Position numbers and translations under genes: made by a program. A stretch of 63,982 nucleotides of DNA, the filler included, from Raillietiella orientalis (lineage: Eukaryota): the NCBI GenBank assembly GCA_036172245.1. It is 4 parts of 4 records of this genome, joined end to end, with 100 filler letters (N's around TTAATTAATTAA, not from the genome) between each part and the next. Parts side by side here need not be neighbours in the genome. Positions count along the whole stretch, not along the records: positions 1 to 20,403 come from JAYWIR010000235.1; 3 more parts are not named here. One strand, written 5' to 3'. Under the pieces are notes generated by a model. The model saw only the letters and a program-made list of their open reading frames with translations, searched no databases and was not told the origin of the DNA. Below, piece by piece: positions 1 to 38,245 of the stretch. The first letter of the stretch is position 1. Every line of letters starts with the position of its first letter.

Positions 1-199
1 CACATATAAAGTAGCGTTCCGCCCGCGCGCCGTCCGATTTCGGCAGCCTGCTCTTCGGAGATGCTGTGAATCCCCTGCAGGAGCGTCAAGTTGAAATCGC
101 GCAGAGCGTGAGCTATTAGTCGCCTCTTCTCGTCGTGTTGGAGCCGTTGACGTTCCAAGACGACACGGCAACACGACGAGAAGACGCGATTGCCCTCAT
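1..199 (-). pseudogene. A1 ORF2 N-terminus, apurinic-like endonuclease (frameshifted)
   Basis: Manual translation MRAIASSRRVAVSSWNVNG / QHDEKRRLIAHALRDFNLTLLQGIH aligns with A2 MRGIAYSGRLSVTSSNVNGLQNDEKRRLVANALRSFDLALLQEIH. There is a 1-nt frameshift after NVNG. Confidence 0.88.
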
Positions 200-204
200 C
201 ACGG

Positions 205-873
205 CTAAGAAAGCGAGGCCGTGGTGCTCGCTTCACCCGGCGATCGGGCAGTAAGCAGCACGACGGGCTGAAGGGCGGGGTCGCCACCGGCCTCCGCCGT
301 GCTGCGCGTAATCGACTGCTTCTCCCCTGGTGAAGAACCTGTGGGTTCCGGGGTGAGCAATCGTCGTTCCTCGGTGAGTGTGTCACGCCTCAGGGCTTCA
401 GCCCCGCGTGCGCTCGCTCTGGCGCGAGTAACTCGTCGTTCAGCGGCGTTATGGGATTCCTTTACGGAGTCTGATGCTCGTGCGATCGAGGTACGCTTGC
501 ATCCGTCCGACTGAACCGGAATGCTCTTCTCGGCGGTAACAGAAGCGGACTTGCACGCGTTCAAGGCGCTGGCTTTTTCCTGGAAAGAGGCAGAAGCCGC
601 GTGTGTTTTCGTATTCGCGCGACTGCTTTTTTCTTTAAAAGAGCTCAAGGATGGATGTTGCGAAGCTTTTTTTGGAGATTTTTCTTTCCTCCTCTCCACA
701 ACCTTCCATTCGCCTTCGCGATTTTCGGAGGCTTCCGCAACAGTGGTTGCGGAAATCTCCTGGATTTGTGCTGCGTTCCCTATGGACGTTGCTCTTCCTA
801 AGCCTTTAAATGGAGGCAGAGGAGTCACCTTCTTGACATTCGGGAGATTGCCCTTCACCTGCCGAGTCGGCGA
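205..873 (-). pseudogene. A1 ORF1 C-terminal low-complexity half
   Basis: ORF 205..858 joins in frame to ORF 5870..6181 (...LHAVAPSPTRQ|VKGNLPN...) once B and one TSD copy are removed. Confidence 0.85.
859..873 (+). repeat. Left copy of 15-bp target-site duplication CTGCCGAGTCGGCGA flanking element B
   Basis: Identical 15-mer at 5915-5929, immediately after B's terminal AAAA. Confidence 0.93.
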
Positions 874-1029
874 ATGTGCTCATGTGTGCCCGGAGAGGGG
901 AAGTTTCCAGACGAAACTACAAAAGAAGCGCCAAGGAGATCGCGGCGGAAGACCTGCAGTGGTCCCGTGCAGCAAGACCAGCTGCCAGGATGCAGGCACC
1001 TGGAGGAGAAGTGGAGAGACCGTCGTCTT

Positions 1030-2270
1030 CCATGGAAGCCATGGAGGTAACGTGAGGCAACGGCGAGGCGGTGGCAGGCATGCCGAGGATCGCGCCCGTG
1101 GCGGGCGTTGCGGCGAAGGCGGCGGCGATGCCAAGGGTCTTGCCCGCGGCAACGACGGCGGAGGTCGTGCCCGCGACGGCGACGCGAAGGTCGTGCCTGC
1201 GGCGGGGAAGGTCGCGCATGCGGCGGCGATGCCGAGGGTGCCGCCCGCGGTTGCAACGGCAGCGGGGTCCCGGGCAGGACCCGCGGGCGTCCACGCGGTT
1301 CAGGGCGAGACGCCATCTTGTTCGGCTGCGGAAACGCAGCCCTTTTCCTATGCGTCGGTGGCGGCTGGACAAGCAAGTGTCCACCCACCAAGAAAATTCG
1401 GGAAGCTGCTATGCGGCAAAGTCCAAAAGGTGGATCGGCCGATCGTGGAGTTAGGGCCGAATGGGAAGCCCATCATTTTCAAGACTGGGCTGATCAAGTT
1501 CAGTAATGTCAGGGAGGTGTATCTGTCCCTCGATAAAACCACTATCAATTTTTATGCAATACAGACGATCATACCGGCAAATAACGGTTCACAGTCTTCA
1601 CATACTGTGAAAACATTAGAGAACGATTCATCCAGAAGGGGATCAATATACAAGGGAGAATGGTTTGGGGTATTGGCGAAATGCCATACACAACCGTCTT
1701 TCTGAACGGCATCTCCATCCTCACACCGCAACTAACAATGTGAAACTTTTTCGAGCAGTATGGGGAAGTTCTGGACCTTGAATGACAGAACTTCTCTGGA
1801 AATATATTTTCTGGCGACATGATTGCCAAAATGAAGTTGAAAGAGGGAGCTGTGATCTCTGGATTACCCGTTCTTGACGAACAATCCCAGGGAGTGAACG
1901 TGCGTTACCGGCAACAACCGATATTCTGCACCGGGTTCAAGCCGTTCGGCCACAGGGCAGGCGCTTGCGCAACGTGTCGTTGTTTCCCCTGCGGCAAGGT
2001 AGGACATCATGTCCGAAACTGCCCGCAGCCGAAGGAGTGCTCCTTCTGCAAGAAACACGGACATGCCAAATGGAGCTGTCCGGAGTTTGCAAGCTACAAA
2101 AGGATTCGCGGTCTCTCTCCCGTGAGAGAGAGAAAGACTAAGGAAGCGGATCAGCCTCAGAAGTTGCAGAAAGGCCGAAGAAGGTGAAGGAAGCCGTCCA
2201 GGTATCGTCGGACGGCTTCATTGAGGTAGGAAAGAAAGAAAAGAGGAGGATGCTCGTCAAAGAGCAAGAA
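1030..2270 (+). pseudogene. B ORF1 (gag-like nucleic-acid-binding protein), disrupted
   Basis: Ala-rich repetitive N-terminus, SYASVAAG motif, and knuckles CTGFKPFGHRAGAC, CFPCGKVGHHVRNC and CSFCKKHGHAKWSC (ORF 1819..2187). Start position uncertain. Confidence 0.82.
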
Positions 2271-2289
2271 ACCCCTCTCATCCTATTCT

Positions 2290-5200
2290 AGGACATCGCC
2301 TCCTAGAATGTTAACGGTGTGGTCGACCAAAGAAAAAGAAAAAAGATTGTGCGGACCGTCGCACAACAAGACATAGTGTGCCTGCAGAAGACCCACAAGA
2401 AGGGTCTCGAGAATAGTCAGCACATGGAACGGCGATTCAACGTGCAGATGTTCGTCAGCGAGGGAGAACGGAACAAGCAGGGTGTGGCGATCCTATTCAA
2501 GAACCACTTGGCCTCCACTATTCTAGCAGTGTTCTGTCCTCAACCACGACGAATAATCGGCGTGCGACTGGCCTGGTCCGCTACCGTTCACCTCATCCTG
2601 GTAAACGTGTAAGGGCCGCACTGGCTGAAACAACGTTGTGCTTTGGCGCTGCATGCAGCCCTCCGTGAGAAGGTTGCATCCAAGGACGTCGTGATTCTTG
2701 CTGGTAATGTTGACCTATTGGATGGGATCACCCACTCCAAAGACGCCAGAGGAAGGACGGCGTATCGGCGACTATCCTAAGAGTTCGAACTGGTGTGGCG
2801 AACTGGTAGTCACAAGCTGACCGATCACGTCCTGCACAGCACCGAACTTTAGAATCGCATCCAGGGTTTTCGAGACATTATGACCAGGGTGTCCAATCAT
2901 CCCCTGATGCGGTTTCCCCTAAGAACGGAGAATCCTCAGCGGATTCAAGGCACCAGGGCGGCGCTCATCAGGATGCTCGCCTCGTTCGAAACCCATCCCG
3001 GACATCAGGCTGTCCTGGAGGCGATTCTGAGGGCAACAACAATCCGAAGAGTCGCATACTGGGACAGCCTGAAACACAGGATACATCTGTTTGCAAACAT
3101 GCAGTTCGGTGATAAGCTCTTGAGGCAGGAGGCGTACCGGGAGCTGAAAATCCAAGATCGCTCACTCTTAAAGTACTTCGATCATTACGAAAGTCGGTAC
3201 GTCTTCAAGAACAGAACAGGGGAAGTTGGAGTGCTGGAAAAGAGAAATCAGGCAACAGATATCTTCTGCATCCAGTACGACGGTCAAAAGCGACAGTCGT
3301 CTGAGGATATCGTCGATGCCTTTCGCAGGCATCACACGAAACACTTGAGGCGACAACATGTGTGTCGCTCTAGTCAGCAGGCCTTCTTGAGCTATCTCGA
3401 GAAGAGGACCGACGACCTCCAGCGAAACAGACTGGAGGAGGAATTCTCCGAAGACGAGGTGAAGACATCGTTTATTGAACTACGCAAGGGCGTGACAGCG
3501 GGCCCTGACAGCGTACCCATCACTCACTATCAGCGATACCTGCATGCCTACCTGCGTTTGTTCCACCAGTTGACCCACTGCATCCGCGAAGAAGGAAGAC
3601 TTCCACATTCCTCCTAGGAGAGAGGTATGAGATTGTTGCCAAAAGGGAGCGGCCTCGATCAGGTCGCTCAATGGAGGCCAATCTCGATCCAGAACTCGGA
3701 TGATAAGTGGTTGGCGAAGATCTGGACCAACCGCTTAGGCAAGGTCATGTGGACGCTCATCTCTCCGGTGAAAACGTGTGCAGTCTCTGGACGTCACATT
3801 TCGAACAATGTCAAGTGTGCCCAGGCCACCGTCGGTCTCAGCCGACACGTCGGCGAGAACCTGGGGCTGGTGTTCACTCACATGGAGAAGGCTTTCTACT
3901 CTATCGACCATGGGATGCTGCTGAAAATTCTGGAGAAGCTAGGCCTTTCGGAACGCTTCAGCAACTTCGAGAGAGTGGTACTCCAGATCCAGTACTGCCG
4001 AATCAAAAGCAACGGCCAGAAGACGGCAGCAATCCGGATGGAACGGGAGACCGGCACGGCGACTCGCTAAGTACGATGCTGTTCGTCTTCCACATGGAGG
4101 CGTTGTCGTCCTTTATCTAGAAGAACGGACGACTGCAAGGCATAACAATCGATGGTCAGCGTCTTACCAATCTGGCATACGCTGATGATCTACTCTTTTT
4201 TATCAAGGGAGAGAGAAATCAACCAGCGTTTCTGGATGTGGTAGACCTGATGGATCAAGGCCTGGGCCTGAAGATCGACGCCCAGAGAAGCCAGCTCTTG
4301 CTTGGTAGAATCCTTGATCTCACTGCTCTAGCGGGGACAGGATTCCGAACGGTGGACAAGGCCGAGTACCTGGGTGTCTACATTGGCGACGTTTCCGCGT
4401 CGAAGCTATTGTGGACCGAGATCCTAGGGAAAACGGCCATGGAAGCAGCCATGTACACCCGAACGGATCTTTCTATGAAGCGAAAGGCCAATATGTGGAA
4501 CGAAGTACTCCTTCCAAAAGTGCTCTTCAAAGCGGCCTTCGCGAGGATCAACACGGACAGCACGAGGAAGTTCGAAAAGCTGCAACGCAAAACACTGTGG
4601 AACCACTACCGCCCAAGAGTATGTCTCAAACCCCTGTGTCGTCCCAGGGAAGAAGGCGGTTCCGGGATGAAGTCGCTTGAACACTGCATGGAAATCATGG
4701 ATTCGCGACACTTCCTGGACATGGCCACTCACTGGGATGACTAACCGTACGCGGCGCACAGAGCCTACGCGTTGTTGTTAAACAACTCAAAAGGCCTGAT
4801 GACTGCGCTGCTAGGCCGGGCAGGCGAATGGAAAAAAATCGACCCAACCTGGACGAGGAAGCAACGGCTAAAGGGAAAGCACCAAATCAAAATCGTGCCG
4901 AGAAGTAGGGAACTCTGGCAGGACGAGTCCATCCTGGTGATACCTTGGATGCTTCCTGTCCCGCCTGACACGAGAAGCTCGATCCACCAGCGGTGCAGAG
5001 TTACCGTTCAACGAATCCAGGAGTGGAGGCGAGGAGGCTACCTACATCACACTCGTATACTTCAATATATAAAGATGATATCAGCAAAGTTTACCTATAT
5101 GACTCGCGAAGTGTGTTTCAACCTCAACTACTTTGCGTGGTCCATGGTAACAAAAACAAACCTCCGAAGACTAATTCAAGAAGAAAACCGTGATATCAGT

Positions 5201-5720
5201 GCTCTCCAGGAAGCCGTTGATCGCTACGGGAGTGACCGGATCAACCTGTTAGCGATCGGAACTACGCTCTGGAGGAGGGACCTTCCGCCGGGCACCCAGG
5301 ATGACCTCCTGATGTTTTATCATGGTGGAATCCAGAGAGGGTCCCGATTGCAGCACTACACCGGAAGAAGGTAAGATCGAGACTGCACAGCATGTGGATA
5401 CATCGACACGAGTGTTCACGTCTTGACGTGTCCCACATTGCTGCATAACTGGCTGATCCTGAAAAGGATCATCGGACTTACGAACAGTTCCGCAATGGAG
5501 ATCCTCGCCGGGATGTTTCAGGGGGGTGGTAATGTTCCCTGTTACAATCCCGTGGTGAGGACGACCATCGCCCTCTTCATCACCGCCATACTCGTGCGGT
5601 GGTAAAGTATGAGGAAAGGCAGGAAAGCCGCACCATTGATGGAGATCCTACAAGGGCTTCTGAAGAGGGAAATTGGCATTAGAAACTGTGGGAAAATCCA
5701 TGACTGGACGTACCGATTCA
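2290..5720 (+). pseudogene. B ORF2 (APE endonuclease - reverse transcriptase - zinc finger), disrupted
   Basis: S*NVNG (~2301), DIVCLQKTH, GVAILFK, AGPDSVP, LLPKG..WRPISIQNSDDK, MEKAFYSIDH, GDSLS, YADD (4178-4189), YLGVYI, LCRPREEGGSG, and CTAC near 5385. Confidence 0.92.
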
Positions 5721-5914
5721 TCCTGAAGAGGATAGAAGACGACGCCCGGGGCCAAACAGCAGGAAACCCACCATGAGTGCATAACTTGGGAACTCATGAA
5801 ATTCAGAGTGGTAAAAACAGTGCAAATGGTATGAATGAGACTGTAGTGTGAATGTTTTTGTAGAGAAATTTAACAAAAATAAATTAACCCCACCCCTCGT
5901 GGGACTAGGGAAAA

Positions 5915-5929
5915 CTGCCGAGTCGGCGA
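5915..5929 (+). repeat. Right copy of the 15-bp TSD of element B
   Basis: CTGCCGAGTCGGCGA, identical to 859-873. Confidence 0.93.
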
Positions 5930-7157
5930 TGGGGCGACTGCATGCAGCGTGGTTTTGCTCTTCGCGACTCTGCTTTTTAAGGCTTTCGTAGCCTTTGCAG
6001 AGGGGCCTGCGCTGCAGTGGGGCTGTCCGAAACTCGGAAGGGAGAACGGAACGGGGCAAGAAGTCTTCGCACTGTTGCGATCTTCCTGTTTTCCTACCTT
6101 TCCCTGCAGGTTGTTACGGAGATTTCCTTGTTCCTGGCTCAAGAGGTGCCTGCGAGTTCGGCAGGAGGGAGGGCACGGCACGCGTCAAACCCTCGCGCCC
6201 CTTTTTAATTGGCTTCCCCGTTGTGACTTTCCCCTTTCGGGGCGTTGCGGGCGGGGATGCTTTCTTTTCATCCGCGGATCGCTCGTGGTTTTTTGGGAGT
6301 TTTTGCGGACGACGTTCTTTATTTGCCGCTGCGGCTTTTCGTGCAGTGGTCTCTTGAACCCGACGAATTTCCGCTGCGGCTCTTTTTCTTTCAAGTACCG
6401 GGCATTTTTTGATTTCGTTTCCGGAATCTTTGCAATAGCGGCATCTTGGAGAGGGGCACTCGTTAATTCGGTGCCCATCCTTGCCGCACTGCTCGCACGC
6501 GCGAGTCTGGCCTATGAACCACAGGTGAACGACCGTGCCGTTCACCTGCAGCTGCTCAGGCACAACACGCCTGTTCGCGACGGTGATCCGCGCGGAGGCT
6601 TGTCCAATGTGGACAGAGGGGAAATCCTTTAGAGGATTTGGCCTCCTCCACAGAGCGTGCACGGTGGCGAACTTCGCCAGCACACTTACGGCATCGCGGT
6701 CGGAGATTTCCGGTTCGATGTCGCACAATTGAACGACAAAAGAGTCGTCCATCGCGGTAGGTAGGACTTCCTTGCCATTGATGGTCAACGGCGTACGGAG
6801 AAGGCGCTGCACAAGTGCTGCGTTCTTGCACCGAATCTTCGTATATTCCATCCTGCCAGCAGGCATTATGGCAAGGAGTTCCTCCTCGCGAACGCCTATC
6901 CGGACGAGCTCATCATTGAGCTCACGACCGATTCTCCCGTTAAGTGGCCCACTGACCTTATAACGGAGTGCAGGCATGTATCCTGATGACACATATGCCT
7001 GGAACTCCGCATCGCAGGGTCCTGGTTTTTGGGAGGTAACGACGGCCTAACTCCTCACCGGGGGCGAGGCAACCATTACGGAGGATGCGGCCACTTCAAG
7101 TGCAGCTGAAGTGCATCCAGTGGCTTGCTCCTCCACACTATCCTGTGTACTGGCCAT
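5930..7157 (-). pseudogene. A1 ORF1 N-terminal half with two zinc knuckles
   Basis: ATG at 7157 (MASTQDSV...), one internal TAG, then ORF 6114..6992 with CEQCGKDGHRINEC and CRYCKDSGNEIKKC. A frameshift lies near 6150. Confidence 0.88.
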
Positions 7158-7270
7158 GTTGCACTATGCTACTTGGCAGATTGCACAGGAACACACAAGT
7201 GCGAGCAAAAACGCAGGCACAAAGTTGCCCGATCGTTGGCGCGGATAGACGCGGAAACACGTCTGCACTG

Positions 7271-10200
7271 TACGAGCGCGGGAGATCAAACGCATCTCCG
7301 GAGGGCGGCTGTGGTATCGGTGTGGAACATCGAGAAAATGTGGTGTCGCCTACCTGCTAGGGTCCGCAATCGAGGCCGCCGCCCATTAAGTGCGGTACGA
7401 CGATCACGGTCGTTTCGGCTAGCTTACTCTCAGCTGGTCCGTCTCGATCGTCCTGATCGTTACGAACCTTTATGCAACGAGCGGAGCGGACCTGACAAAC
7501 AGGGGTTCCAGGAAAGAATTTTTCCTTGCCCTCCATCGCGACTGGTTGACCGAGGCAGGCGTGCGGAATGCCCATCTGTTTCCAGGCGATTTTAACGTTC
7601 GTCTGAAACCGGATGGGCCGAATCACGAGCGTGACCTGGTCAACTAGGTGTGCGCGTCGGTGCACACTTGTAATTTGTTGGCCAGTGTACCAGGGATGGA
7701 GGACAACATCGATCACGTGTTCCTTGACGAGCACCTGTGCACTTGTGTGGGCAGGCGCTGCAAGTTGCCGTGCGAGTTGTCCCACCTTCGCCCAATCGTC
7801 TTTAAAATCCATCCGCGCGACAGGGGCCCCCCCCCGTTAACGTGGCGTTTGCCAGGGGACTGGCTGAAGCTCCCGGACGCGACGGAACATCTCCGAACGT
7901 TTATACGGAGCTTTAGGATGCAGACACTTCAGGATTGGGTCCGCTTTAAACGGTCGGTCCAGGAGTTCTTCGACCAGTTCCCTCTGCACCGCCTACCTGC
8001 GGGATTTGGGAACGGGGTACGTAACGAACGAGCCTATCTGCAGGCTCGCCGTTACGCCAGGACCCCCGACATCCGCAGGCTGGCGGAATACAAAGCGGGA
8101 GCCGAGAAGAAAGCCTGGCAGTCAGGATCGGCCAGATTGCTGGACGATCAGGGCCAGGAGCATTCGGCACCCGCTCAGATCCGCGGTCTGCTGCGGCGCT
8201 TTTACTCCTCCCTGTACGCAAGAACGCCTCCCGAGCGGGATTTCTCACGAATCCTGCTTCCGGAAGGCGCTCCTGCGGTCGGGGAAGAGGAGAAAAAGTC
8301 CCTCGACGAGTCTTTCACGATGGGCGAGATCATGTCGGCCATCGGAAAGCTCACGAGGCGAAAGGCTCCAGGGGAGGACGGCCTGTCCGCGGAGTTTTAT
8401 CAAAATTTCGCCGCTGAGCTAACCCCCCTGGTACATCAACTCACCTTGCTGATAAGCGAGACAGGTGACGTTCCCGCCTCGTTTCGTTCGGCAAAGGTGC
8501 GGCTTCTCCCTAAGGGAGGAGATCCGAGGAGCATGAACAACTGGCGTCCCATCACAATAGTGGATGCGGATGCCAAGTAAAAAGCTAAGGTTTGGGCTGA
8601 ACGCCTGCGACGGGTCGCAAACGCCTTCATCAGCCCGGAACAGACGCATGCTGTTCCGGAGCGAAGCATGAAGGCGAACCTGTTCCACGCTTCCACCTGG
8701 ATAGAGCTCCAACACGAAAGAAGCTTCATGCGCACCAAGAATCCCTGTGAGTCCGTGAGCCATGCGACGGATGGTCGGATGGGGTAGAGAGCACTTGCGG
8801 TCGCTGTCGACTTGGGTAAAGCATTCCACAGCGTTGACCAGAATCTCCTGCTGGAGCTTTTGGAACGCTTGGGCTTCCCGACCTCATTATTGGCCTATCT
8901 GCGCTCTAGCTGGCGCGATTCGCAAATCAATGTTACTTTCAGCGGGCATACTGTTCACGGCGTGCCAATGCGATGTGAGATCCGGCAGGGAGACAGCCTG
9001 AGACCCTTGCTTTTCAGTACCTACTTTGAGTTGGAGCGTACAGGGAAACTCTTGGCGCACCTGCCGCATGAATGCGCCGGAACGCTTGCGGTTTCAGCAT
9101 ATGCGGACGACCTCCTGCTACTGCTCCCTATGTCCATCCAGGCTTCTGCGGTCGAGAAGTTCTTAAACCTGCTGAATCGAGCAACCGGGCTTACGGTGAA
9201 CAAGGCGAAGTCGTCCGTGATGCCAGTTGGTGCGGCGTAGGCTGGGCAGCAGGACTGGGTACGATTGGGGATCCCCACGGTGAGGTACTTCAAGTACCTT
9301 GGTGTGCCGTAGGAGGACTACTCCACTGCGGAAGCGTGGTCCGGCTGCCTTCAAAAAGTAGAGACGGCTATCGGCCCGTTCCGAGGCGTCTGGTTTTTCC
9401 TGCCTGAACGGGCCGCGGTTTGGAACATGTTCGCGGCTCCTCTTCTCCACTCCCTGCTTTTTGTTTGCCCCCCCACAGAGAGGATCAAAAAGTAGACGAA
9501 GGACCTCCTCCGTATCGCCCTTTGGGGCAACAAGAGATCCCGACTCCACTTAAAGGACTTGTGCGCCCCAAGTCGGGACGGTGGTCTCGGCTTCCTGACA
9601 TTGAAGCGGCTTGTGCTGCAGCTCCAGTTCCGGATTTTGGCATTTGTGCCGAAGTTGTGGTGCACCTGTTGATGCGTCCCTGCACGTCTCCTCCTTCAAC
9701 AAGCCACCTGCAAGACGGGACTTACGTCGTTTCTTGCACTCCTTCGAAACCGCATCAACCGATGTAAGCTTCAGCTACGGAGGGTGGCTGCGCTGGCAAG
9801 GAAAAATCAAGGATGGATCACCTGTAACCCCGCGAACGGTAGTGCCTGGTTGCAGGAATCCGTTCGCAAGTGGAGACAGTTCGGCATGCAACCCTCTTAA
9901 CAGGAACGAAGGTCCCTGTTTGGGTGTCACAGAAGTTGCACGCTCCGTGAGATCCTTAAGGATCCTAAGAAGAGAGCGTGGTCAGGAAGAACCCCCCTCG
10001 CTGCTACGCTGGACTCCCTAGTGGAATATCAGGACAGCGACGTTGCGGCGAAGTGGGAAGTTACAATAAAAATCTCCGGGAAGGAGAAGAAGCAGAGAGA
10101 TTGGAATACGGGCCAGCTAACTGATGCTGCGACCCCGAGTACGCCTCCTAATGGACTTCTGCGCTGGAGAGAGCTGCAGGATGTTCCCATTGAACATCTG

Positions 10201-10919
10201 AATTGGCCCCCGATTCTTATGAACACTTCCATTCTCCCCCTAAAATGGCAGGAGTCGGCATTCCTGTTGCAGCACTGGGGACTCCCCTGCAACGCCCGTC
10301 GACACCACTGGACCTGGGGAGCGGTGGATCCCAATTGTATAAGGTGCGGGGAACGGGAGTCCCTCTCCTACCTCCTAGTGGATTGTGTTGCCCTTCAGCC
10401 CCTTTGGTTCCGCTTTGCCGCGGCCATCGGTATCCCTTGCAGTAACCCCAGGGACGCAGTAAAAGCTTTCTTCGTTGCCGACGCCCTGCGGCCAGCGTCC
10501 TCGATAGCAGCCTTGTGCTGCCTTCGTGGGATCGTCGCCGCCTGGAGCACAGCGACGGAAGGACCTAGCGATCAGGAAGCCATCCAGTGCGCCTCCGAAT
10601 TCCAGAGGAGGGAGTCGCGATGGACCCACCTGAATGTTCACAACAAACAAGAGCTTGCCAGCATCCTGAGAGGGATGATGCGGCCCCAGCAGCAACAGTG
10701 ATCCCTTCCCGTTTCCTCCCACCCTTTGTTTTTTTTTGTTTAGTTTTTTTGTTTTTCTTCTTTCCCCTGCTGCCTTGGTGGACCGTACCGGTCTAGAAAC
10801 CGGTGAATTGGCAGGCGCCGTGGTTCTTAGCTTCTGGCTGGAGCATTACTACAGCCATTAATAATTTGTTTACAAAGTTTATTTTTTTAATAAACGACCC
10901 GGAAAAATCCGGGTAAAAA
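7271..10919 (+). mobile_element. Non-LTR retrotransposon copy C: ORF2 from within APE through RT and zinc finger, plus 3'UTR and A-tail; disrupted
   Basis: CGVAYLL, VTNLYA, GDFNV, IDHVF, KAPGEDG, LLPKGGDPRSMNNWRPITI, DLGKAFHSVD, IRQGDSL, YADD (9100-9111), FKYLG, CIRCGERESLSYLLVDC. Stop at 10701, T-rich UTR, AATAAA at 10889, AAAAA at 10915-10919. Confidence 0.93.
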
Positions 10920-12636
10920 TCGAACGCCTTGTGGAGATCGACCGCGACCGCCAAGGCACCTGGCGTTCCCTCCTGCCGTCGGCGGCTGTTCTTCTTGCCT
11001 GCGGCAGTGACTTTCTCAGCAGCCTGGCTTTCCTGCGCCACAACTTCCTGCAGCCGCATCCATGTACGCGCGAAAAGGATGTTCGCCTCCATGGGTCGTC
11101 CCGGAATCGCGTAGGTTTGTTCCGGGGTCACCACAGATTCCGCGATACTTCCTAACCGCGCGACCAACAGCTTGGAAAACAACTTGACGTCCGAGTTCAC
11201 CAAGGTGATCGGAAGCCAGTTGTTAAGTTGACGCAAGTCTCCGCCTTTCGGCAGGAGACGCACCTTCGCTGAGCGGAAGGAATCAGGGACATTCCCGGAT
11301 TCACTCATCAGCGTCGCGAGTTTCAGCATCAAGGGAATGAGCTCCACTGCAAAGCACTGATAAAACTCTCCAGGGAGCCCACCCTCGCCTGGCGCCTTTC
11401 GTGTCCTAAGCCCAGCGATAGCGGACGAAAATTCATCCGCCGTGAAGGGCTCGTTGAGACGTTAGCGTTCCTCCTCGCCGACAACACGAGCATCCTGAAA
11501 CAGGAGTATCTCAGAGAGATTATCCTCCGTCGGAGATTCCGCGTATAGCGAGGAGTAGTAGCGTCTCACAATGCGGCGTACTTCGGCTGGGGCCGAAAAT
11601 TCCTGGCCCTTGTCGTCCAACAGGAATGCTGCTCCGGACTGCCAGACCTGGCGCTCGGCCCTCGCCTTGTACTCGACGAGACGCCCGACATCCGCGCGTC
11701 TTGAAAACGTGCAGCCTGCAGAAAGTCTCTACTGTTGGCTACGCCCTCTCCGAAACCGCGTTAAAGTCGGTGCAAGGGGATTTGGCAGCAGAACTCGCGG
11801 ACAGATCTTTTGAGATCGTCCCAGTCCGCAAGTTCTTAAATGGAGAAGCCTAGGAGGTGTCCACGTAGATGCTCCGCAGCCTCCGGTTGGCTAAGCCAAT
11901 CCGCCTGCATCCTCCAGTTTTGCAACGGAGGTTCCATGCCTGGCGGAAGGATCTCAAACTCCAACCTCTGGTGGTCAGAAAGCCTAGTCAACAATCTTCC
12001 TCTCCTACCCACACGCGAATGCAGGTTTCCATCGAGGAAAACGTGATCGAGCGATCTTTCCATTCCAGGTTCGCTGACCATCAAGTTGGCGGCGTGCACG
12101 GACGCGCACATCTCGATGGGCAGCGCGCGCTCCCTCGAGCGGCTCCAATCGTCGGAGAGCAGGCGGACGTTGAAGTCCCCAGCGACGAGGTGCGCTACTT
12201 GGAAACCGGAGTTGTTAAGCCAGTGGCTCTGCACCCCACCAAAGAAGGCTACTCTTTCTTCGAATAAGGGAGAGCCACTCGGCGCATAGACGTTCGTAAC
12301 GACGAGATCGATGGACTCGGACCACTTGATGACAAGCTGGCCTATCCGTCCGTCGTCATCGAAACGAACACTACGCACCGCTTCCGCCATTTTTCCTCTT
12401 ACGAGGAACGCGACGCCGCACGTGTGTGCGCCGCCGCACCGCCAATGTAGCGTTCCGCCTGCGCGCTCCTCGATTTCGGCTGCCTGCTCGTCGGAGATTA
12501 CGTGAATCTCCTGCAGGAGCGCGAGGTCGAAGGAGCGCAGGGCGTTGGCCACTAATCGCCTCTTCTCGTCGTTCTGTAGTCCGTTCACGTTCGAAGACGT
12601 TACGGACAGACGACCAGAATACGCGATTCCCCGCAT
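10920..12636 (-). pseudogene. A2 ORF2 (APE + N-terminal part of RT), truncated
   Basis: NVNG, LLQEIH, CGVAF, NVYAP, AGDFN, LDHVF, LSDH; then LLPKGGDLRQLNNWLPITLVNSD, EQTYAIPGR, DLHKAFD. Confidence 0.92.
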
Positions 12637-14557
12637 TACTGCTGGGAAGGTGGCGGCTGTTTGCTCGCTTTATGCGGCGAGCAGACGGCGAGCAGCACGA
12701 CTGGCTGGAGGGGACGGGCGCCACCGTCCTCCCTCGTGCTGCATGCATGTAATGCATCCACGCCAGGCTTAACCCCATCGGGTTTCGTGGAGACTTCGCG
12801 TTGCTTCGCTGCGAGCGTTGCCTGGCTGCCTACTTTTGATCGGCGCGCACACGCTTTTGAACGAGCTGTCCTCGTCTCGGTGATCGGAACGGCATCCATT
12901 TCGGAGGCCGACCGGCGCATGATCGATCGGGTTTCGGCCTTCCGCGAAGCAGTGACAGGTTCTGCTGGATTGACAGCTGTCCTGTTTTCGTTTTCCGTCA
13001 CCAGAGCATCGCTTTTGGTGACGGCTGCTTTCCCGGCGCGCGCGTTTTCAGCGTGCTCATGCGCAGTTGCACCAGGGACCTTTGCTGAAGTCTTCTTTAC
13101 TTAATTACGGTTCTTCACTTCACGTGGCGCCGTAAATGAAGATTGCCCTAAATTGCTGTCTTTGAAGCCATCCACGTCTTTGGACGGGAGCACTTCCGAT
13201 GGCTTCGACACCCTCGTCATGGGCGCTGCCTTCGTAAGGGCTTTCAATCCCTTCGTTGGCATGGCATCCGCGCCATTCGAGAGCTTGCTCTCCGACTGCG
13301 ACGGCGTGAGATTTTTCTCCGCTTGCGCGGTGTTGGATCGGGACGCGGATTTTTTTTTGCCGACTTCCGGAGTCGACACGGCACAACGCTTCTTACCCGA
13401 TTTGGGCTTCTCAGCCACTGCAGGAGGTAAAGGAATGGATCTTACGGTAATGGAAGTGTCGATACCGCCGTTGTCCATTGGCGTCCCCGCCGGTTGCACG
13501 AACTCCGAGAGAGCCGGGCGTGCTTGGGTAGGACAGCTATTGCGCCTAGGGGGACTCACCATTGCCCCGGATTTCCCGCATTCTTTCTTTTGCGGCTTCC
13601 TTGCCGCGAGAAGGAACGCGCAGGGCTTCGCCTGCGAGTTTTACTGCTGCTTTGGTGCGACATTCCGCTTCGCGTTCTTACGGAATTTCTGCCGTGCGGT
13701 CTCCAGGTTTTTTGCAGATTTTTCCTTTTTATCCGCGTTTTTTTTTTAAGATGGAACTTCGCGGCTGCCTTTTTTCGCAAAAGATCCGGGCAATTTTTTA
13801 ATTGGTGCCCGGATAGTTTGCAATAACGGCATTTTCCAGAGGGGCATTTATCCAAACAATGCCCCTTCTTCCCGCATTGCTCGCACGTTCTAACTTTGCC
13901 CACGAACCACAGGTGAACGACCGTGTCTTTCACCTGTAGTTTGGTGAGCAGCAGACGGCGGTCCGGTATTGTAAGCCGGACTCCAGCGACTCCGCTGTGT
14001 ATGGACAGGAAGTCTTTGAGGTTGCTACGCACTCTCCAAAGCGCATGGACCGTTCCGAATTTCGCCAACGCGTTCCGAATATCAATATCCGAGATTTCCG
14101 ACTCGATGTCGAAAATCTCCGCCACAAATGAGTCGTCCATGGCGGCCGGGAAGACCTTCTGGCCACGGATCGACAACGGGGTGCGCAGCAAGCTTTGCAC
14201 AAGTGCAGCGTCTTTGCAACGCACCTTGATATAGCCCATATCCTTCACAAGCATAATGGCGAGGAGGTCCTCCTCTTGCACGCCAACACGGGTCAGTTCA
14301 ACGTTGAACTGACTCCCGTCGCGCGCAGAAAGAAACCCACTCACCTTGTATCGGAGAGCAGGTCTATAGCCTTGGGCTACGTATGCCCGGAACTTTGACT
14401 CGTCGAGTGGTTACCCTTTGACTGCTTCTGTGGCAGCAACGTCAGCAAAACTCCTCTCCATTGTCGAGAAAGACAAAGAGGAAGCGGCCGTCGGTTCCGC
14501 GATTGCAGATCCGAATGCTGTTCCTACAGCTTGGGTAGCTTCGGGTTGGGTCGACAT
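12636..14557 (-). pseudogene. A2 ORF1, disrupted by stops and frameshifts
   Basis: MSTQPEATQ...YRPALRYKVSG, followed by ORFs 13556..14344, 13101..13562 and 12636..13001. Paralogous to A1 ORF1. Confidence 0.88.
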
Positions 14558-14635
14558 CGTCGTCAAAATGTACGACGCCAAGATGAAGCGGATGAAAGCA
14601 CAGAGACGAGAGCGAAGAAAAACACGTGCGCACTC

Positions 14636-17075
14636 GATTGAAATCTCCCGCTATCAGGTGAGCCTTTCGCACATTGGCATCTGCCAGCCAGTCGCGCTTC
14701 AGGGTTTCCAGCAGCCTGGTGCGGTCGCGGTAACCCTGTTTGCCGCTGGGGCCATACACGTTTGTGACGATTAGGTCGATCGAGTCGGACCAGCTGAGAA
14801 TCAGCTGACCGATCCGACCGTCGTCATCAAAGCGCACGCCCTTTACGGCAGCGCCGATGAACGGCTTCACGAAGAACGCGACCCCGCAGGTGTTGCGGAG
14901 GCCGCATCGCCAATACGACCAACCCCCCGCGATCGTCTCGATCTCCCGGGCGTCTGCCGCGGTGATCACGTGGATCTCCTGCTGCACCGCCAGGTCGAGC
15001 TCACGCAGGGTGTCGGCCGTATCTCGCCTGTTGCCGTCGTCGCGCAGCCCGTTGACGTTCCAGCAGGCCGCGCTAATCCGACGGCGACTAGCGAGCCCAG
15101 GTGTTATTCCTGGGAAAACGGCGATGCGGCGTCCGCCACCTGCTGGGGCGGGACGTTAGGTGGAGGGGGAGGGGGGACAGGTACTGAAGGCACCTGTTCC
15201 TCCTCCTCCATCGGTGCAGGCGCGAAGGCCGGATCACCCGCAGGTGGAGTCGCGCTTACCTGTTCGCCCTCCTCCATGGGTTCGGGCTGCTCAGGTTTCG
15301 CGACTGCAGGGAGGACTTGATCCCCCTGCTCACCCTCCTCCATGGGGGTGGCCGGCTCGACGGCTTCCGAGCGTGGGTGTTCCCCCTCCGGGATTTCCAC
15401 GCTGCCGCTTCCTTCCGGCTTCTCCTCCTCGCTGGTGGAGGGGAGACGCCTCCTGGGTTTCTGGGACTCGCGTCCCGAATTCCTGGGGGGTGCCTCCGAG
15501 GAGGAGGATCCGCTTTCGGCCCCCAGGTCGCACTCACCTGCGGGGGCCTTCTCCGTCGGAGCCGACCTGCGTACGCCCTTGCGCGACGGGGTTTCGCGCT
15601 CGGCGAGCGTTGCTCCGAGCTCTTCCGCCGCTTTCTCGAAGGTCGCGTCTTCGCCAGCGGCGACCGTTGCCGCGGGCTGCTCCGCAACCTTATCGAGCGC
15701 GGAGTCATCGCTGACGGCGAACGTTGCCGCGGGCTCCTTCGCGACTTTATCCACCGCGGCGACCTGTCTGTCGGCGCGCGAGTCTCCCGTCTCACCCTCT
15801 AAACGTAGAATGGGCTCGTCCACGCGAGTATTCATCGCGTCCGCATCAGCTGCTCCGGGAACATTGCCGCGGGCGGACTCGGCAGAAACGGCTAAGCGTT
15901 GCTGTGCCACCGAGCATTGGCGGAGTTGTTTTTTTTTTGAAAGCGGCGCGGCTTTTTTTTTGTTGCCGGCAGTTTACTTCTCCGTCTTTTCTTCTAGCAT
16001 CAATTTCTGGCCTGAACCAGCTACCAGGCCTCTTCCTTTTCCGCGTTATCGGGAGCTCTTTCCTCCGACGTCTGTACGGGAAGAAGAGAGGCTGGCAGTT
16101 GGGAACAGCCATTTTCGCGAGCTGGTCTTTTTACCAGTTTTCCACGTTTTTCCTGCGCCTTTTTGGCGGCAGGGGGCACCGGGGTTGGGCGCTTGGGGCA
16201 CACGCGCCGATAGTGACCCTTTTCGCCGCATAGGTGGCACACAATGTTTGGGCACCTTTTTCGTAGATGCCCTACTGCATTGAAGTAGCCACAAAATTGG
16301 CGTTTCCCCACGTACCAGAGATCCACCGCTTCTTGGCAGACCTCCAGCTTATGGGGAAGCGCACCACCCTCTTTTACCGTGATACGCGCCGCAGCTTGAC
16401 CTCCGAAAAGGCTATTGTAGCCTTGGAAAATCGTGGACTTCGGCCTCAACGCGTGCACTTCTGCGTGCTTTTGCTACTGTTCACGAACCGCTGACCTAGT
16501 CATGCGACTGGAGATCCCAGTGAGATGGACCACCACCGAGCAATCCATGGTATCCGGCGAGATCATCCGACCATCAACGATCAGCGAATCGGTGATCACG
16601 CGTCGGGCCAAGGTGATATCTTTGCATACCACCTCGACCCGCTGCCCGCAGCTTAGAACGGAGACACCGTCAAGATCTTTTTCTAAGATATTGGCTTTCC
16701 AAAGCTCCTTCGTAAAGGCGCGTGCAGTTCGCCCATCAAAAAGGTTGCCTACCTTGTAGACTAGCGAGGGTCTATACTTCGCTTTCTTGTAGGCTTCCAT
16801 CTCGGCCATGGCTACGACGCTAGGCGCGGCCACAATGGCGCTCCATGACCTGGGCGTCGCCGGGGACGATTCCGGGACGGATGCTCCTGAGCCAGTAGGC
16901 TGTGGGGACGAACAAGCATCCCCCACGCCTACTTGCACCGCGGTGTACTCTGGCAACGCTGCCATCGGGCACCGACGATGTGCACGCACAAACCACTCAG
17001 CAAATAACCACTCGCCTTGCCACGCAGGCGGAGCGCAGGAAAAGCACGTCCTCACTCCACAGCGAGGTTTCAGCG
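14636..17075 (-). mobile_element. Non-LTR retrotransposon copy D: 5'UTR, ORF1 and APE up to GDFN, interrupted by A2
   Basis: ORF1 ATG at 16965 (MAALPEY...YRPSLVYKVG, homologous to A ORF1), knuckles CGYFNAVGHLRKRC and CHLCGEKGHYRRVC, stop at 15104. APE motifs CWNVNG, QQEIH, NVYGP and IAGDFN, then an abrupt switch to the A2 5'UTR. Confidence 0.9.
15190..15765 (-). repeat. Coding tandem repeats in D ORF1 C-terminus: 3 x 19 aa (DKVAxxPAAT) and 3 x 22 aa (PMEEGEQ)
   Basis: Read directly in ORF 15104..15910. Confidence 0.8.
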
Positions 17076-17076
17076 T

Positions 17077-20000
17077 TGTCAACCGGGTACGCCCGAAGCG
17101 TTTATTTGTAAACTCTACATGCGTGGTACGAGGCCCCACCACGGCCTTAAGCACAGGTCCTGTCGAGACACCGGGACGCAGCCCGGCGTGGCACTCCCCG
17201 ACAGCGAAGGAGGATGGGGATAAGACAAAAAGAAAAATAAAAAGAAACAAACAAAAAGAAGTTGGAGGACGGGAAAGGGATCACTGGTCCCTGTGGGGAG
17301 GGCCCATTTGTCGAAAGAAGCCCTCGAGGTCAGTCTGCATATTCCCCAGTTGGGGCCATCCGGCAGCTCTTCGCAAGAAGCGTTGGGCATATAGGATAAC
17401 ATCCCTTGCATGTGGACCCACTCCTTCGTTGTTGGCGTCGCTCCATGCCGCCACGATGCCACGGACGCAGCACAAGGCTGCGATGGCTACGGCTGGATGC
17501 AGTGCGCCCTTCACGAAGAGGGGCCGAAGAAAGTCTCTGGGGGTGCTGCCTGTAGGGAGCACGAGGGTCGTCCCGAACCGTTCCCAAAGGGGTCGGAGGG
17601 CAGCACAATCCACAATAAGGTGGGGATGCGGCTACCGCTCCCCGCACCTGGCACACACAGGATCCACAGCTCCCCTCGTCCAGTGGAAGAGGCGCGCGTT
17701 GCAGGGTAGACCCAGTGCAACAAAAGCAACGCCGACTCTTGCCACTTGAGGGGCAGGATCCTGGATTCTTTCATCACCGGGGGCCACTTCAGCTCATCCC
17801 TGGGGATGGCGAGCAGCTCGCCCCATCTAAATAATCCTCGCGGCTGGACGCTCGGGGTCGTGGCGTCGGCCAGTTCTCCTGCTGTCCAGCCGCTCATCAA
17901 CTTCTCGCGTCCCTAGATGCAGCAGGAGACTTGCCACCTTGGCGTCCGGCTGCTGTGAAGTGCCCTCTTCAGGAAGGGCAGCGCCGTAGCTAGACAGGTC
18001 GTCTCTGCCCACGTGCATCTTGCTGGACTCTCCAGGAGATTCCGCAGAGTGCAGCGGGCGTAGGGGCTGCATTGGAGACGATTTCACGTCTCGTGGCTTG
18101 TCTTGTTGACCACTGCCCACGTTCCTATATTTTCCTCCAGCCAGGCGGGGGAGTTGGCGGGGCAGCAAACCATCCAGCTGTTCTCCTTGGCCAATGTTGC
18201 CATGCTCCCGAGCAGTAAAACGCATCTTCGCATCTTTCGGCCACGGCTCAGAAGAAAAGACGCGAGTCCATCGCACCGGGACACACGGCTGGCCAGGAAG
18301 CGGGCCGGAGTGCACCAAGGGGTGCTTCACATCTTCGCTGCGATGGCGAGGGTTCGCCACCGCAGCTGCTTCTCCACGCGCTACAGCGTCAGAAGGCCAA
18401 GGCCGCCGTCCCGACGCGGAGAGCACAAGTCCTTCAGAGGGACTCGGGGCCTACCCTTGCCCCAAAGGGCGATACGGAGGAGGTCATTTGTCCTCTTCTT
18501 GGATTCCACGGTGGGAGGGCAAACAAAAAGCAAGGGGCGGAGGATGGGGGCCGCGAAGGCGTTCCTAAACGCGGCACGTTCCGGCAAGTGAAACTTGCCT
18601 TTTAGGAACGGGCCGATCGCCGTCACGACTTTTTGGAGGCAGCTGGACCAAGCTTCCGCAGGGGAGTAGTCCCCCAACGGCACCCCAAGGTACTTGAAGC
18701 ACCTCGCCGTGAGGATCCCCAGACGGACGCAGTCCTGCTGCCCTGCCCACGCCGCACCTATTGGCACAACAGACGACTTCGCCCTGTTAACCTGCAGTCC
18801 GGTCCCGCGGCTGAGCAGATCGAAGAAGTCTCCGACCGCCTTTGCCGGGGTGGACATTGGCAACAAGAGCAGAAGATCGTCGGCGTACGCTGCTACGTCG
18901 GGCGTGCCGGGGCACGAGCTCGGCAAGGGGGCCAAAGTCACCCTGTACGCTCTCGGCACCAACTCAAAGTAGGTGCTTAAGAGCAGGGGGCTGAGGCTAT
19001 CGCCCTGCCTTATGCCCCGCCGCAGCGGCACGCCATACACCTCCTGTCCATGGAAACAGACGGTAATCATCGCATTCCGCCAGCAAGAGCGCAGGTAGGA
19101 AATCAGGGAGGGTGGGAAGCTAATGCGACCCAGGAGCTCCAATAGGAGTTCCTGGTCTACACAGTCAAACGCCTTGTGGAGATCGAATGCGAGCGCTAGG
19201 GCCCCTTCCCTGCCCGGGGTTCCCTTCCCAGCCCGGCTGGCGGCCCCAAGGTGAGCTTGCCGACTTTCCCTATCCCTTTCTTTTCTCTACTCTGCATGTG
19301 AACCCATGTGCTTGCGAAGAAGAGGTTGGCATCCATACTTCGCCCGGGAGCAGCATAAGTCTGCTCCGGGCTAATTACGGATTCTGCCACCTGCCCCAGA
19401 CGCGAAGCCCATAGCCCTGCTATCAACTTGGCGTCCGTATTCACGATCGTGATCGGACGCCAGTCCTTTAAATCCCTGAGGTCTCCCCCTTTCGGAAGGA
19501 GCCTCACTCTGTTTGACCGAAACGAGGCGGGAACATCGCCTTCGTCTCGGATCAGCCTGATCAACTTAAGCAGCAGGGGTGCCAGCTCTTCCGCGAAGCT
19601 CTGAAACAACTCCGCGGGCAAGCCGTCTTCCCCTAGAGCTTTACGCCTCTTGAGCCTTTTGATACCGGCGAGAATTTCGCCGGTGGTAAAAGGCTCGTCG
19701 AGGCTTTCCATCTCCTCCTCCCCTATTGCCGGGGTGCCATTCGGAAGCAAGCGTCGAGAGGCGTTTCGATCCGGGGGCTCCCTGGCGTAAAGGGAGGAAT
19801 AAAAACTCAGCACGAGATGCCGTACCGACGCCGGGGACGAACATTCCCGGCCCTGGTCGTCCAGCAAGCTTGCCGACCCGGATTGCCAGGCTTCGCGTTC
19901 GGCCCCGGCGCGGTACTCGGCGATGCGACGGACATTAGAAGTTCTCTCGTACCTACGAGCCTGTAAATAGGCCCGATGGTTGCGAGCACCCTCGCCGAAT

Positions 20001-20403
20001 CCGGGTGGCAGGCCATCCAGGGGGAACTGCTCACAGAACTCGCGGACCGATTCCTTAAAAAGGTCCCACTCCTGGAGATTCCGGAGCGTGACGCCTCTCA
20101 GGTATTCGCGAAGGTGTTCCTTCGCACCTGAGAGTCGCGTCCAGTCCCCCGGCAGACCCCAATCCCTGGATGGCGGTCCCTTGACACGAGGCCGCATCTC
20201 GAAAATTCACCGGGAATGGTCCGACAACGTCGACGCAACCCTTCCCCGTTTGCCGAACCGTGAACACAGGTCAGCGTCGAGGAAGACGTGGTCGATGCTG
20301 CGGACCATTCGCCTCTCACCCGCGAACAAGTTGCGCGCACTCATGGCGGCGCACAACTCGTTCATCGCGTTCTCTTGTGTTTCTGGCTCACCTGTTAGCA
20401 GAC
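17077..20403 (-). mobile_element. Non-LTR retrotransposon copy E: ORF2 from distal APE through RT and zinc finger, plus 3'UTR; close relative of C; cut by the gap
   Basis: SIDHVF, LSDH, KALGEDG, WRPITIVNTD, DLHKAFD, GIRQGDSLSP, YADD (18876-18887), FKYLG, LCSPRRDGGLG, CARCGE. Stop at 17281, T-rich UTR, AATAAA at ~17106-17101. Confidence 0.93.
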
Positions 20404-32500: not shown

Positions 32501-32724
32501 TTTTGCGCCTCTTCGCGAAGCATCCATTTGCTGTGAGTTGCAAATTCCCGTCATGGAGACCCGCACAACCTTCCAATTTCCTTGGTTTAGAAGAACATTG
32601 AGATGATTCCGACGTTTCATTAGGGTGGGGCACTTTGGACTCCGTGATGTTTTCATGGTAACCAGTGTCGGATGAAAAAAGGGAATGTTTCCCTTCGCAC
32701 TGTTTTATCATACAATCCAAATTT
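20504..32724 (-). repeat. 278-bp tandem satellite array, about 44 monomers (reverse orientation relative to 39823-58450)
   Basis: Motifs such as GTGGTTTTCATGGTAACCAGTGTC recur every 278 bp (ORF starts at 27905, 28183, 28461, 28739). Confidence 0.98.
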
Positions 32725-37500: not shown

Positions 37501-38245
37501 AACCGTCTCCGAAGAACTAGAACTTCGATCGAACTCTTCCCCTTTCAGCCAGAAGAGTTGAAAGTGCCTCCCCCTCGCCACTCCACCTCCCCTGTTTATG
37601 GATGGAAGGGCTTTTCCCCTCCTGTGGCAGCGATCGGCGCTACTGGTACAGCACTGGGGTCTTCCGTGCAATGCGCGCCAGCAACACTGGACGAGGGAAA
37701 GCGCATCGCCGAACTGTACCAGGTGTGGAGAGAAGGACACATTCCCCCACCTCGTAGTGCGGTGTGTCGCCCTCCAGGAAGTGTGGGCACGTTTCTCCGC
37801 GCTACTTCTGCACCCCGAGGACGATTCCAGAGGCTCTTTGAGGCCTCTCTTCGTGCGATACGCCGTGACGCCCGCAATCGCGGCGCTGTGACGTGAGCGC
37901 AGTGTCGCCGAGGCAAAGTGCGACACCGAGAGAGGCCGTAGCGATTGGGGGGCTGCCTTGCACGACACGCCAGCAGCTTCCTGCAGATAGTCTTGAGGTG
38001 GCCCCACCTTCAAAGGGAGAAGTAGGAGCTCGCCGGCAACCTTCTACGGATGCACAGGATTTATCCATCGTGAAAAGTGATCCCTTCCCTTCCCCCGAAT
38101 TATTCTTTTTGTTTGAGCGATTTGTGTTGCTGTTGTTGTTTTGTTCATTTTCGCTGTTTGTGGTTGCTTTCGCTTTTGTTGGAATTTTGACTCATCCTCC
38201 TTCCCCTTCGTGTACGTGATGGATATCGCCGGCTCCCCCTCTTTT
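37500..38245 (+). mobile_element. Fragment F: 3' end of a C/E-family LINE (zinc-finger region + 3'UTR)
   Basis: PLLWQRSALLVQHWGLPCNARQQHWT...CTRCGEKDTFPHLVVRC matches C (HWGLPCNARRHHWT...CIRCGE). AGTGATCCCTTCCC at ~38076 is followed by a T-rich tract. Confidence 0.88.

Follow-up and report, generated by a model that had tools for sequence, protein, structure and literature searches.

Positions 1–20403 of the window (the whole 63,982-nt stretch of Raillietiella orientalis DNA that was analysed) are one entire contig, JAYWIR010000235.1, made only of L1-group LINEs. Copies of five families, here A1, A2, B, C and DE, cover all 20,403 bp, so that the contig contains no host DNA, just as the original prediction had it for ∼20 kb. 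From the inside outwards the nest runs B, A1, C, A2, D, each element lying in the next, with E attached head-to-tail to D. The contig ends immediately left of position 1, and the distal halves of the interrupted elements fall beyond the contig end; to the right of 20503 lie other contigs, joined by N-linkers. Satellites in the remaining window sit on those other contigs, and a tie between them and the LINE stack was rejected.

The nested elements

All LINE junctions fall at the positions first proposed for them, with small refinements, and the orientations hold: three insertions are antisense to their target and one (A2) is sense. The downstream part of A1 (1–858, minus strand; the end of ORF1 and the start of ORF2, with its APE domain) is cut by the contig start and is 89.5% identical to an intact A1. 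B (874–5914, plus strand) is a decayed element with a CCHC ORF1 and an APE-RT ORF2; it had been placed inside A1 ORF1 with a target-site duplication, and it does lie there, antisense, between perfect 15-bp repeats at 859–873 and 5915–5929 (both plus strand), the right-hand copy being the B family site in A1 ORF1. B is 5′-truncated by ∼55 nt, lacks ∼0.5 kb internally and ends in a poly(A) signal, a hairpin and four A. The 5′ part of A1 (5915–7274, minus strand) comprises the 5′ end and an ORF1 that encodes two CCHC knuckles. Its junction with C in mid-APE stands, but the position once given as ∼7270 becomes 7274, followed by a 12-bp spacer (7275–7286, minus strand) that represents the duplicated A1 family site of the host APE and whose final bases are likely element-derived.

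The 3′ part of C (7287–10919, plus strand; mid-APE, RT, zf-RVT and 3′ end) is antisense in the A2 RT. It meets A2 at DLHKAF|D (10919/10920) as predicted, except that the supposed A-tail is a hairpin and four A, preceded by a poly(A) signal at 10889. The 5′ part of A2 (10920–14635, minus strand; 5′ end, ORF1, APE, and RT up to DLHKAFD; 93.6% identical to a full-length A2) is sense in D, at GDFN. Its 5′ end (14635) abuts D directly after that motif, again as predicted, and 14636–14644 (minus strand) is the 9-bp A2 target duplication, covering the DFN codons of the D APE. D (14636–17075, minus strand) is a DE-family 5′ part consisting of a target-type spacer, 5′ end, ORF1, and APE to GDFN (90.4% identical to DE 1–2458). 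E (17076–20403, minus strand; 92.8% identical to DE 2462–5790) is the 3′ part of another copy, joined to D at a regenerated DE site; the contig breaks off 4 nt before E reaches its own GDFN site. That D and E are a head-to-tail pair of one family is a point absent from the original prediction.

Matches to Exo_endo_phos, RVT_1, zf-RVT and zf-CCHC were found (the zf matches below curated cut-offs), and the combination of ORF1 with an ORF2 carrying APE, RT and a C-terminal zinc-binding domain is that of L1-group, APE-type LINEs. The RT is nearer to L1 than to R2 (human L1 ORF2p in the PDB, E 1.4e-37, versus E 1e-12 or weaker for R2 proteins). The elements show a fixed 3′ end, 5′ truncation and target-site duplication, the hallmarks of target-primed insertion, but the long poly(A) tail and T-rich nicks of mammalian-type L1 are replaced by a hairpin plus 2–4 A and by GC-containing targets. 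In a phylogenetic tree the LINE families of this genome form one clade; their APE domains are 46–72% identical.

Family-specific sites across the genome

Element 3′ ends were gathered by flank-free searches, in each of which the best 40 of 228–1072 candidates were scored, a procedure that favours young copies. By rule, 146 of these 160 3′ ends lay at the family site in a sister LINE, or in tandem there; classified by eye, the figure among the best 40 per search was 153 of 159. The original prediction had left two possibilities, a lineage aiming at its own kin or one aiming at a chromatin domain, and the counts favour the former: within the same best-40 samples the flanks were LINEs of the same lineage in 157 of 159 instances, not unique DNA.

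Each family has its own site. A1 inserts antisense in the host APE, and A2 enters DE in sense orientation at GDFN. The other three are antisense to their targets: C at KAF|D of the RT, B within A1 ORF1, and DE in a GFG codon stretch of ORF2; in total at least eight sites in ORF2 and one in ORF1 were seen. The host flanks among the best 40 candidates per search formed five clusters for A1, 15 for C and six for DE; those of A2 formed a single cluster (30/30 site flanks, likewise among the best 40). Tandem self arrays account for 7–15 of the 40 best-scoring ends per family, and DE was twice found antisense in DE. Off-target copies are nearly absent from the best 40 candidates of each search. A2 was found at GDFN of DE; of the C-type GDFN sites listed, whose last bases are different from those in DE, it occupied none. 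The proposal that the best-conserved codons are the families' usual targets was not supported in general: across four ORF2 sequences the mean conservation percentile of eight sites was 0.46 (p 0.64), with high percentiles only at KAFD (0.87), GDFN and GFG (0.71).

The copies are also strongly clustered, 89 of the 160 matches (best 40 per search) having another within 50 kb. Two islands are internal to contig C5 and several lie on C13 and C26, in an assembly that is not chromosome-level; one stack, A1{B{C{A1{B}}}}, forms a physical loop. Such clustering is what would be expected if the elements simply preferred a chromatin domain (heterochromatin islands) without sequence specificity, with selection removing copies elsewhere. 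This model predicts scatter within the 6-kb hosts, however, whereas the ends of each family converge on a single base. Judged on these junctions, a chromatin domain may contribute, but as the sole cause it is refuted, and we hold it to be extremely improbable.

Repeated insertion, duplication and recombination

Complete insertions with both ends are present for A2 in DE and for A1 in C, and an intact C is flanked by both halves of an A2 that itself lies in DE; the distal halves expected from the nest in the window are thus found at other loci. Target duplications across families measure 9–15 bp. Two off-target insertions, of C and A1 copies, carry true target-site duplications of 13–15 bp at near-consensus motifs. 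A search of truncated C copies in A2 (L013, L014 and L018) returned no clean duplication. Both 5′-truncated copies and head-to-tail repeats at the regenerated site occur. Empty sites are evident as well: at least eight empty B sites in A1 among the matches listed (in one empty A1 copy a 523-codon ORF1 runs across the site), together with empty KAFD and GDFN sites. A regular-expression scan for empty A1 sites found none; one is present in an uninterrupted C on C5. Other copies have open ORF2s of 1205–1312 codons; APE domains of A1, A2, DE and a family F are available from open copies at C129:19076–23011, C167:19118–22732, C129:61211–64144 and C13:2499796–2503446.

Recurrent junctions could in principle have arisen once each, the composite then multiplying through segmental duplication, through unequal crossing-over or because host and guest retrotransposed together. 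Duplicated and recombined blocks do exist (one A1/host pair is identical on C33 and C209, and junctions are common to C13 and C129), the A2 site flanks form their one cluster, and the order B-A1-C-A2-D-E of the window recurs on contig C167. But of the rare letters that mark C, A2, D and E in the window, C167 shares only 1–4%, and it was rejected as a duplicate of the window. Moreover, numerous divergent hosts carry the same family at the homologous base, and truncated and off-target copies carry duplications of their own. For A1 (26 of 32 junctions) guest p-distance is 0.039 versus 0.153 for the host, and the two are uncorrelated (Mantel r −0.07, p 0.72). A single origin followed by duplication is, on these comparisons, largely refuted for A1, C and DE, and as a general account we think it very unlikely. 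Co-amplification is less firmly excluded for A2 alone, because of its single host cluster and a weakly positive guest–host correlation (r 0.17, p 0.17; 23 of 26 junctions).

Private substitutions amount to 4.3% in D, 3.8% in A2, 4.1% in C and 6.3% in B, while in A1 they fall from 8.0% in the left part to 3.2% at 5915–6514 and 0.5% at the 5′ end (6515–7274). By this gradient the A1 of the window is a recombinant mosaic in which a young 5′ end is joined to an older copy that carries B. Read error is an unlikely source of the high divergence of positions 1–6500, which consists of substitutions with almost no indels. The proposed order D < A2 < C < A1 < B survives as topology but not as a time order: B has its 6.3% of private substitutions, and since A1 is a mosaic B is not demonstrably the youngest. 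Some nests, with A1 in the window among them, were scrambled afterwards when copies recombined or underwent conversion.

Site choice and known systems

We consider it very probable that the window holds a stack of five LINE families, each recurring at a base-exact site in a sister LINE, likely by way of an APE endonuclease that nicks a family-specific sequence. Target-primed reverse transcription would start at the nick; the endonuclease would set site specificity, the 3′ hairpin may recruit ORF2p, and the element's 5′ end, where its own sequence resembles the target, may aid 5′ joining and tandem formation. Every new insert would supply fresh sites to other families, so that the same stack could be rebuilt independently and retroelement islands could grow from within. 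Tx1L-EN provides a precedent for specificity set by the endonuclease (PMC1950540, PMC4494074). By simple arithmetic, 210 Mb should contain hundreds of chance occurrences of a motif of ∼10 bp, and therefore longer recognition, chromatin or the purging of solo insertions must contribute to the near absence of off-target copies.

Specificity might instead be set by RNA–DNA pairing, with a weakly selective endonuclease and a target-like element-end sequence, self-encoded or co-transcribed from the host, that pairs with the nicked target. In keeping with this, an antisense motif resembling KAFD is present at C 5′ ends even where the A2 or B host itself has a different sequence (one such case has a 15-nt host deletion, joined at 4-nt microhomology), A1 5′ spacers in one host type are unlike the 3′ flank of the same host, and there is no poly(A) tail that could pair with T-rich nicks. 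Yet 3′ junctions pass from the hairpin and 2–4 A straight into host-specific letters, and truncated copies that lack the 5′ mimic still sit at near-consensus sites; we regard pairing as a very unlikely determinant.

We lean, if only slightly, towards a self-contained guild of LINEs: a single lineage would have given rise to at least ten families, each with an endonuclease that evolved its own target in sister-family genes. The families would link up in chains and in closed loops (A1 into C, C into B, B into A1), and identical stacks of several layers would reassemble without a host target. Every insertion would then kill a relative and offer new landing sites. If endonucleases do set the sites, the genome contains a ready-made set of related APE domains that are aimed at eight or more different targets and, in young copies, have open ORFs. 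Two questions would then become testable: by what route an APE endonuclease acquires and changes its sequence specificity, and whether mutual insertion is a form of competition among transposons. Recurrent junctions also risk being mis-annotated as composite elements or duplications.

Site-specific LINEs, a few of them targeting other transposons, are already known. Tx1L targets Tx1D, and Tx1-Mar, Tx1-9_AMi, Tx1-8_Crp and Tx1-4_AMi target Mariner, Harbinger and LTR elements (PMC4494074, PMC6719617, PMC1950540); supplements of the Tx1 papers may list further targets. The present families resemble these in APE-RT organization, a fixed site in another mobile element, fixed orientation and short duplications, and their tandem copies sandwich a duplication, as is reported for SINEU-3. 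Target specificity in Tx1 is taken as over 20% of flanks of one kind (PMC4494074); here 31–40 of the best 40 candidates per family are so by rule. Unlike the Tx1 elements described in those sources, however, the targets are ORFs of sister families that arose in the same radiation (eight or more ORF2 sites and the one in ORF1), guests serve as hosts in their turn, so that chains and one loop result, and there is no poly(A) tail. No named Tx1 protein was among the 45 and 120 homologues listed.

Zepp and ZeppL of green algae are L1-type LINEs that build clusters by nested insertion into existing copies (PMC3446292, PMC8226300). Self-built nests, GC-rich islands, head-to-tail arrays and DE in DE recall them. 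As described in those texts, though, Zepp is a lone family whose copies insert into each other and form one cluster on each chromosome, whereas here many families mostly target one another. Their sites are distinct, the orientation is mostly antisense, and one contig carries two or more islands. R1 (R1Bm in PMC1950540) and R2 are rDNA-specific elements; co-transcription is mentioned in PMC4494074. A base-exact target in multicopy sequence and target-like sequence at the element 5′ end are shared with R1/R2; unlike those, the target here is not a host gene, and the R2 match is far weaker (E 1e-12 versus 1e-37 for L1). R2 has a restriction-like endonuclease and target homology at its 5′ end.

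The open full-text literature yielded no report of sister LINE families that divide up sites inside each other's ORFs. Among metagenomes the best loci were at most 30% identical (80 of 171 listed), no RNA data set was among the sequencing runs listed as holding them, and one protein relative, without context, is 65% identical.

Structure and age of the nest

Positions 1–20403 comprise an entire contig (C235, beginning at position 1) of a 210-Mb genome in 491 contigs; beyond 20403 the window consists of separate contigs joined by N linkers. Translation and Pfam searches identify in C235 five LINE families with a CCHC ORF1 and an APE-RT-zf-RVT ORF2, and copies of these families from elsewhere in the genome tile the contig end to end. 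Alignment to those copies places A1 (minus) at 1–873 and 5915–7274, B (plus) at 874–5914, C (plus) at 7287–10919 and A2 (minus) at 10920–14635, followed by two copies of the DE family: a 5′ part, D (14636–17075), and a 3′ part, E (17076–20403). B lies within A1 ORF1, with a perfect 15-bp repeat on both sides. By translation, Pfam and tiling, the junction positions and orientations of the original prediction are correct. The contig ends (20403) 4 nt before E's own GDFN site, and several other small contigs (C119, C425, C336 and C137) likewise stop no more than tens of bases from a junction; such branch points seem to interrupt the assembly.

Private substitutions amount to 4.3% in D, 3.8% in A2, 4.1% in C and 2.9% in E. 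Along A1 they are unequal (0.5% at the 5′ end, 3.2% at 5915–6514 and 8.0% at 1–873), so this A1 is a mosaic of a young 5′ end and an older copy that bears B; five further A1 copies show similar divergence on both sides. B had been proposed as the youngest insertion, but its 6.3%, a value possibly inflated by thin sampling of B subfamilies, against that of the A1 5′ end in a mosaic element does not bear this out. Open ORF2s are present for A1, A2 and a further family, F, and empty A1 copies are ∼99% alike, indicating that parts of the system are young.

The remaining contigs of the window carry satellites at 20514–32698, 39826–58450 and 58552–63982 (two 278-bp arrays, one of 44 and one of 67 copies, and a 180-bp array of 30 copies, each on its own contig) and, in mixed DNA around 37597–37800 (+), a decayed piece of this LINE lineage, 70–73% to the 3′ parts of C and E.

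Insertion sites across the genome

Queries spanning the junctions recovered, self match counted, the A1/C and A2/D junctions in 40 of 40 matches listed each, D/E in 33 of 40 and C/A2 in 11 of 40. Because such queries are biased toward junctions, the search was repeated with element 3′ ends alone, and flanks were read for the best 40 per family out of 228, 320, 525 and 1072 candidates, a tally that includes the copy queried. By rule, 3′ ends at the family site (one base-exact position inside a sister LINE) plus those in head-to-tail repeats numbered 31+7 for A1, 30+10 for A2, 22+9 for C and 22+15 for DE, that is, 146/160, which upholds the suggestion that the lineage targets its own relatives. 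Reading by eye added seven, so that 153 of the 159 ends with a readable flank fit; the six exceptions are two C in sense at the same RT motif, two C in B, a solo C and an A1 in non-LINE DNA. Of 41 B ends, read by eye in retrieved DNA only (a biased sample), 38 are either in tandem or at the site in A1 ORF1.

Each family has its own site. A1, B, C and DE insert antisense: A1 in APE, directly after the QE motif; B in A1 ORF1; C at KAF|D of RT; and DE in a GFG stretch that lies between APE and RT. A2 inserts in sense at GDFN of DE and duplicates 9 bp. Further families in retrieved DNA have their sites elsewhere, ORF2 alone containing at least eight (residues 77, 86, 176, 290, 317, 373, 508 and 594 of one reference), some with one or two sightings. 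Above-average conservation of the insertion sites as a set was not found. All 3′ ends have a poly(A) signal, a GC hairpin and 2–4 A.

The predicted distal halves were recovered at other loci. A2 occurs with both ends within DE and 9 bp duplicated, in four pairs among those listed, to which three tandems are added. Among ten 5′/3′ pairs of A1 in C-type hosts, four match exactly over 12 bp, after which the host continues, one has a single mismatch, two are two-copy tandems (exact) and three are off by one or two bases. Contig C5 holds an uninterrupted C between both halves of an A2 that itself lies within DE. A five-layer nest, A1{B{C{A1{B}}}}, with every junction present (G000:C13:2537248-2562327), closes the loop: here C sits at a KAFD-like motif of B's 5′ end.

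Two near-DE ends (G000:C13:2509852 and 2533076) differ in last bases and flanks, and possibly mark a target-switched subfamily. Within their first ∼25 nt, the 5′ ends of A1, A2, C and DE, but not of B, share an ACGTG motif and then a T-rich run, which may serve as an internal promoter. An open A1 ORF2 (G000:C129:19076-23011) has GDLN as APE catalytic motif, versus GDFN in its sisters, and its frame continues across the 3′ UTR up to the poly(A) signal.

Insertion and co-duplication

The same junctions could also have been multiplied by copying instead of repeated insertion. Family-site flanks of A2 form a single cluster, as copying would have it, but those of A1, C and DE fall into 5, 15 and 6. 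At 26 of 32 A1 junctions (tandems, other hosts and interrupted hosts account for the six left out) the median difference is 3.9% among A1 copies versus 15.3% among their hosts, and the two are uncorrelated (Mantel r −0.07, p 0.72), which argues against joint copying; A2 gives 5.0% versus 8.7% (r 0.17, p 0.17; 23/26 junctions). Empty sites are seen for B, C and A2. Contig C167 repeats the order in C235, plus a second A2 in tandem, yet across C, A2, D and E it has only 1–4% of the rare letters of the window, no more than other copies do; the same stack was thus built twice.

True insertion is settled by two truncated off-target copies with duplications. One is a C of 940 bp, the sole LINE match in 9 kb, whose 13–15-bp duplication lies at a near-consensus motif; the other is an A1 of 2.2 kb, where 14–15 bp are duplicated. 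Duplication and recombination are active besides insertion: one A1/host pair is identical across two contigs, and C13 and C129 have junctions in common letter for letter, yet with the C 3′ end in different hosts. The solo C (locus L319, G000:C24:859933-860873), which lies in non-LINE DNA with an EGF-like frame (weak Pfam match) ∼5.6 kb away, is possibly the seed of a new island.

Relatives, target choice and genomic setting

Among solved structures the closest RT is human L1 ORF2p. In a 29-row tree (six rows from this genome, one family row dropped, and 23 of 45 homologues, those with both motifs) the families group with one unnamed protein in a single clade (99/97). Their target-specific way of inserting resembles that of Tx1 LINEs, a likeness of behaviour, and they are not classed as Tx1. 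Tx1 families are described in DNA and LTR transposons (PMC4494074, PMC6719617), transposons are listed among LINE targets (PMC4640811), and Zepp is described as nesting within itself (PMC3446292, PMC8226300). Site-specific LINEs in transposons and self-nesting Zepp were thus known beforehand; no account of sister LINE families that insert into one another's ORFs was found in the literature searched, mostly outside subscription journals.

Base-exact sites, fixed orientation, duplications, truncation and tandems are observed for the LINE families, and a nested, site-specific LINE system is well supported by these sequence comparisons; its mechanism is a proposal. In APE LINEs the endonuclease is described as mainly setting target choice (PMC4494074), and Tx1L-EN as nicking nearly its own site alone in vitro (PMC1950540). 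Each family's APE probably has its own sequence specificity; across the four families compared, APE domains are 46–72% identical and RT 62–81%. The start of C is a KAFD-like motif in antisense, also where the A2 or B host has a different sequence (one case with a 15-nt host deletion), and because this start persists in differing hosts, elements may carry a target-like stretch of their own at the 5′ end, which would help to join that end and would restore sites for tandems.

Among the best 40 per family, 89 of 160 matches lie within 50 kb of another. Contigs below 0.7 Mb hold 73 of the 160, and 18 are without usable contig size; on larger contigs 49 of 69 are within 400 kb of a contig end, against 23.6 expected. 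Two internal islands lie on contig C5, and most spot samples taken between them are non-family DNA; one island edge adjoins AT-richer DNA. Near 2.318 Mb of C5 (L321:7356-7751, minus), a Viral_Rep match (PF02407, E 2e-10) that borders a LINE island on its left marks, by sequence similarity, a CRESS-type replication gene remnant.
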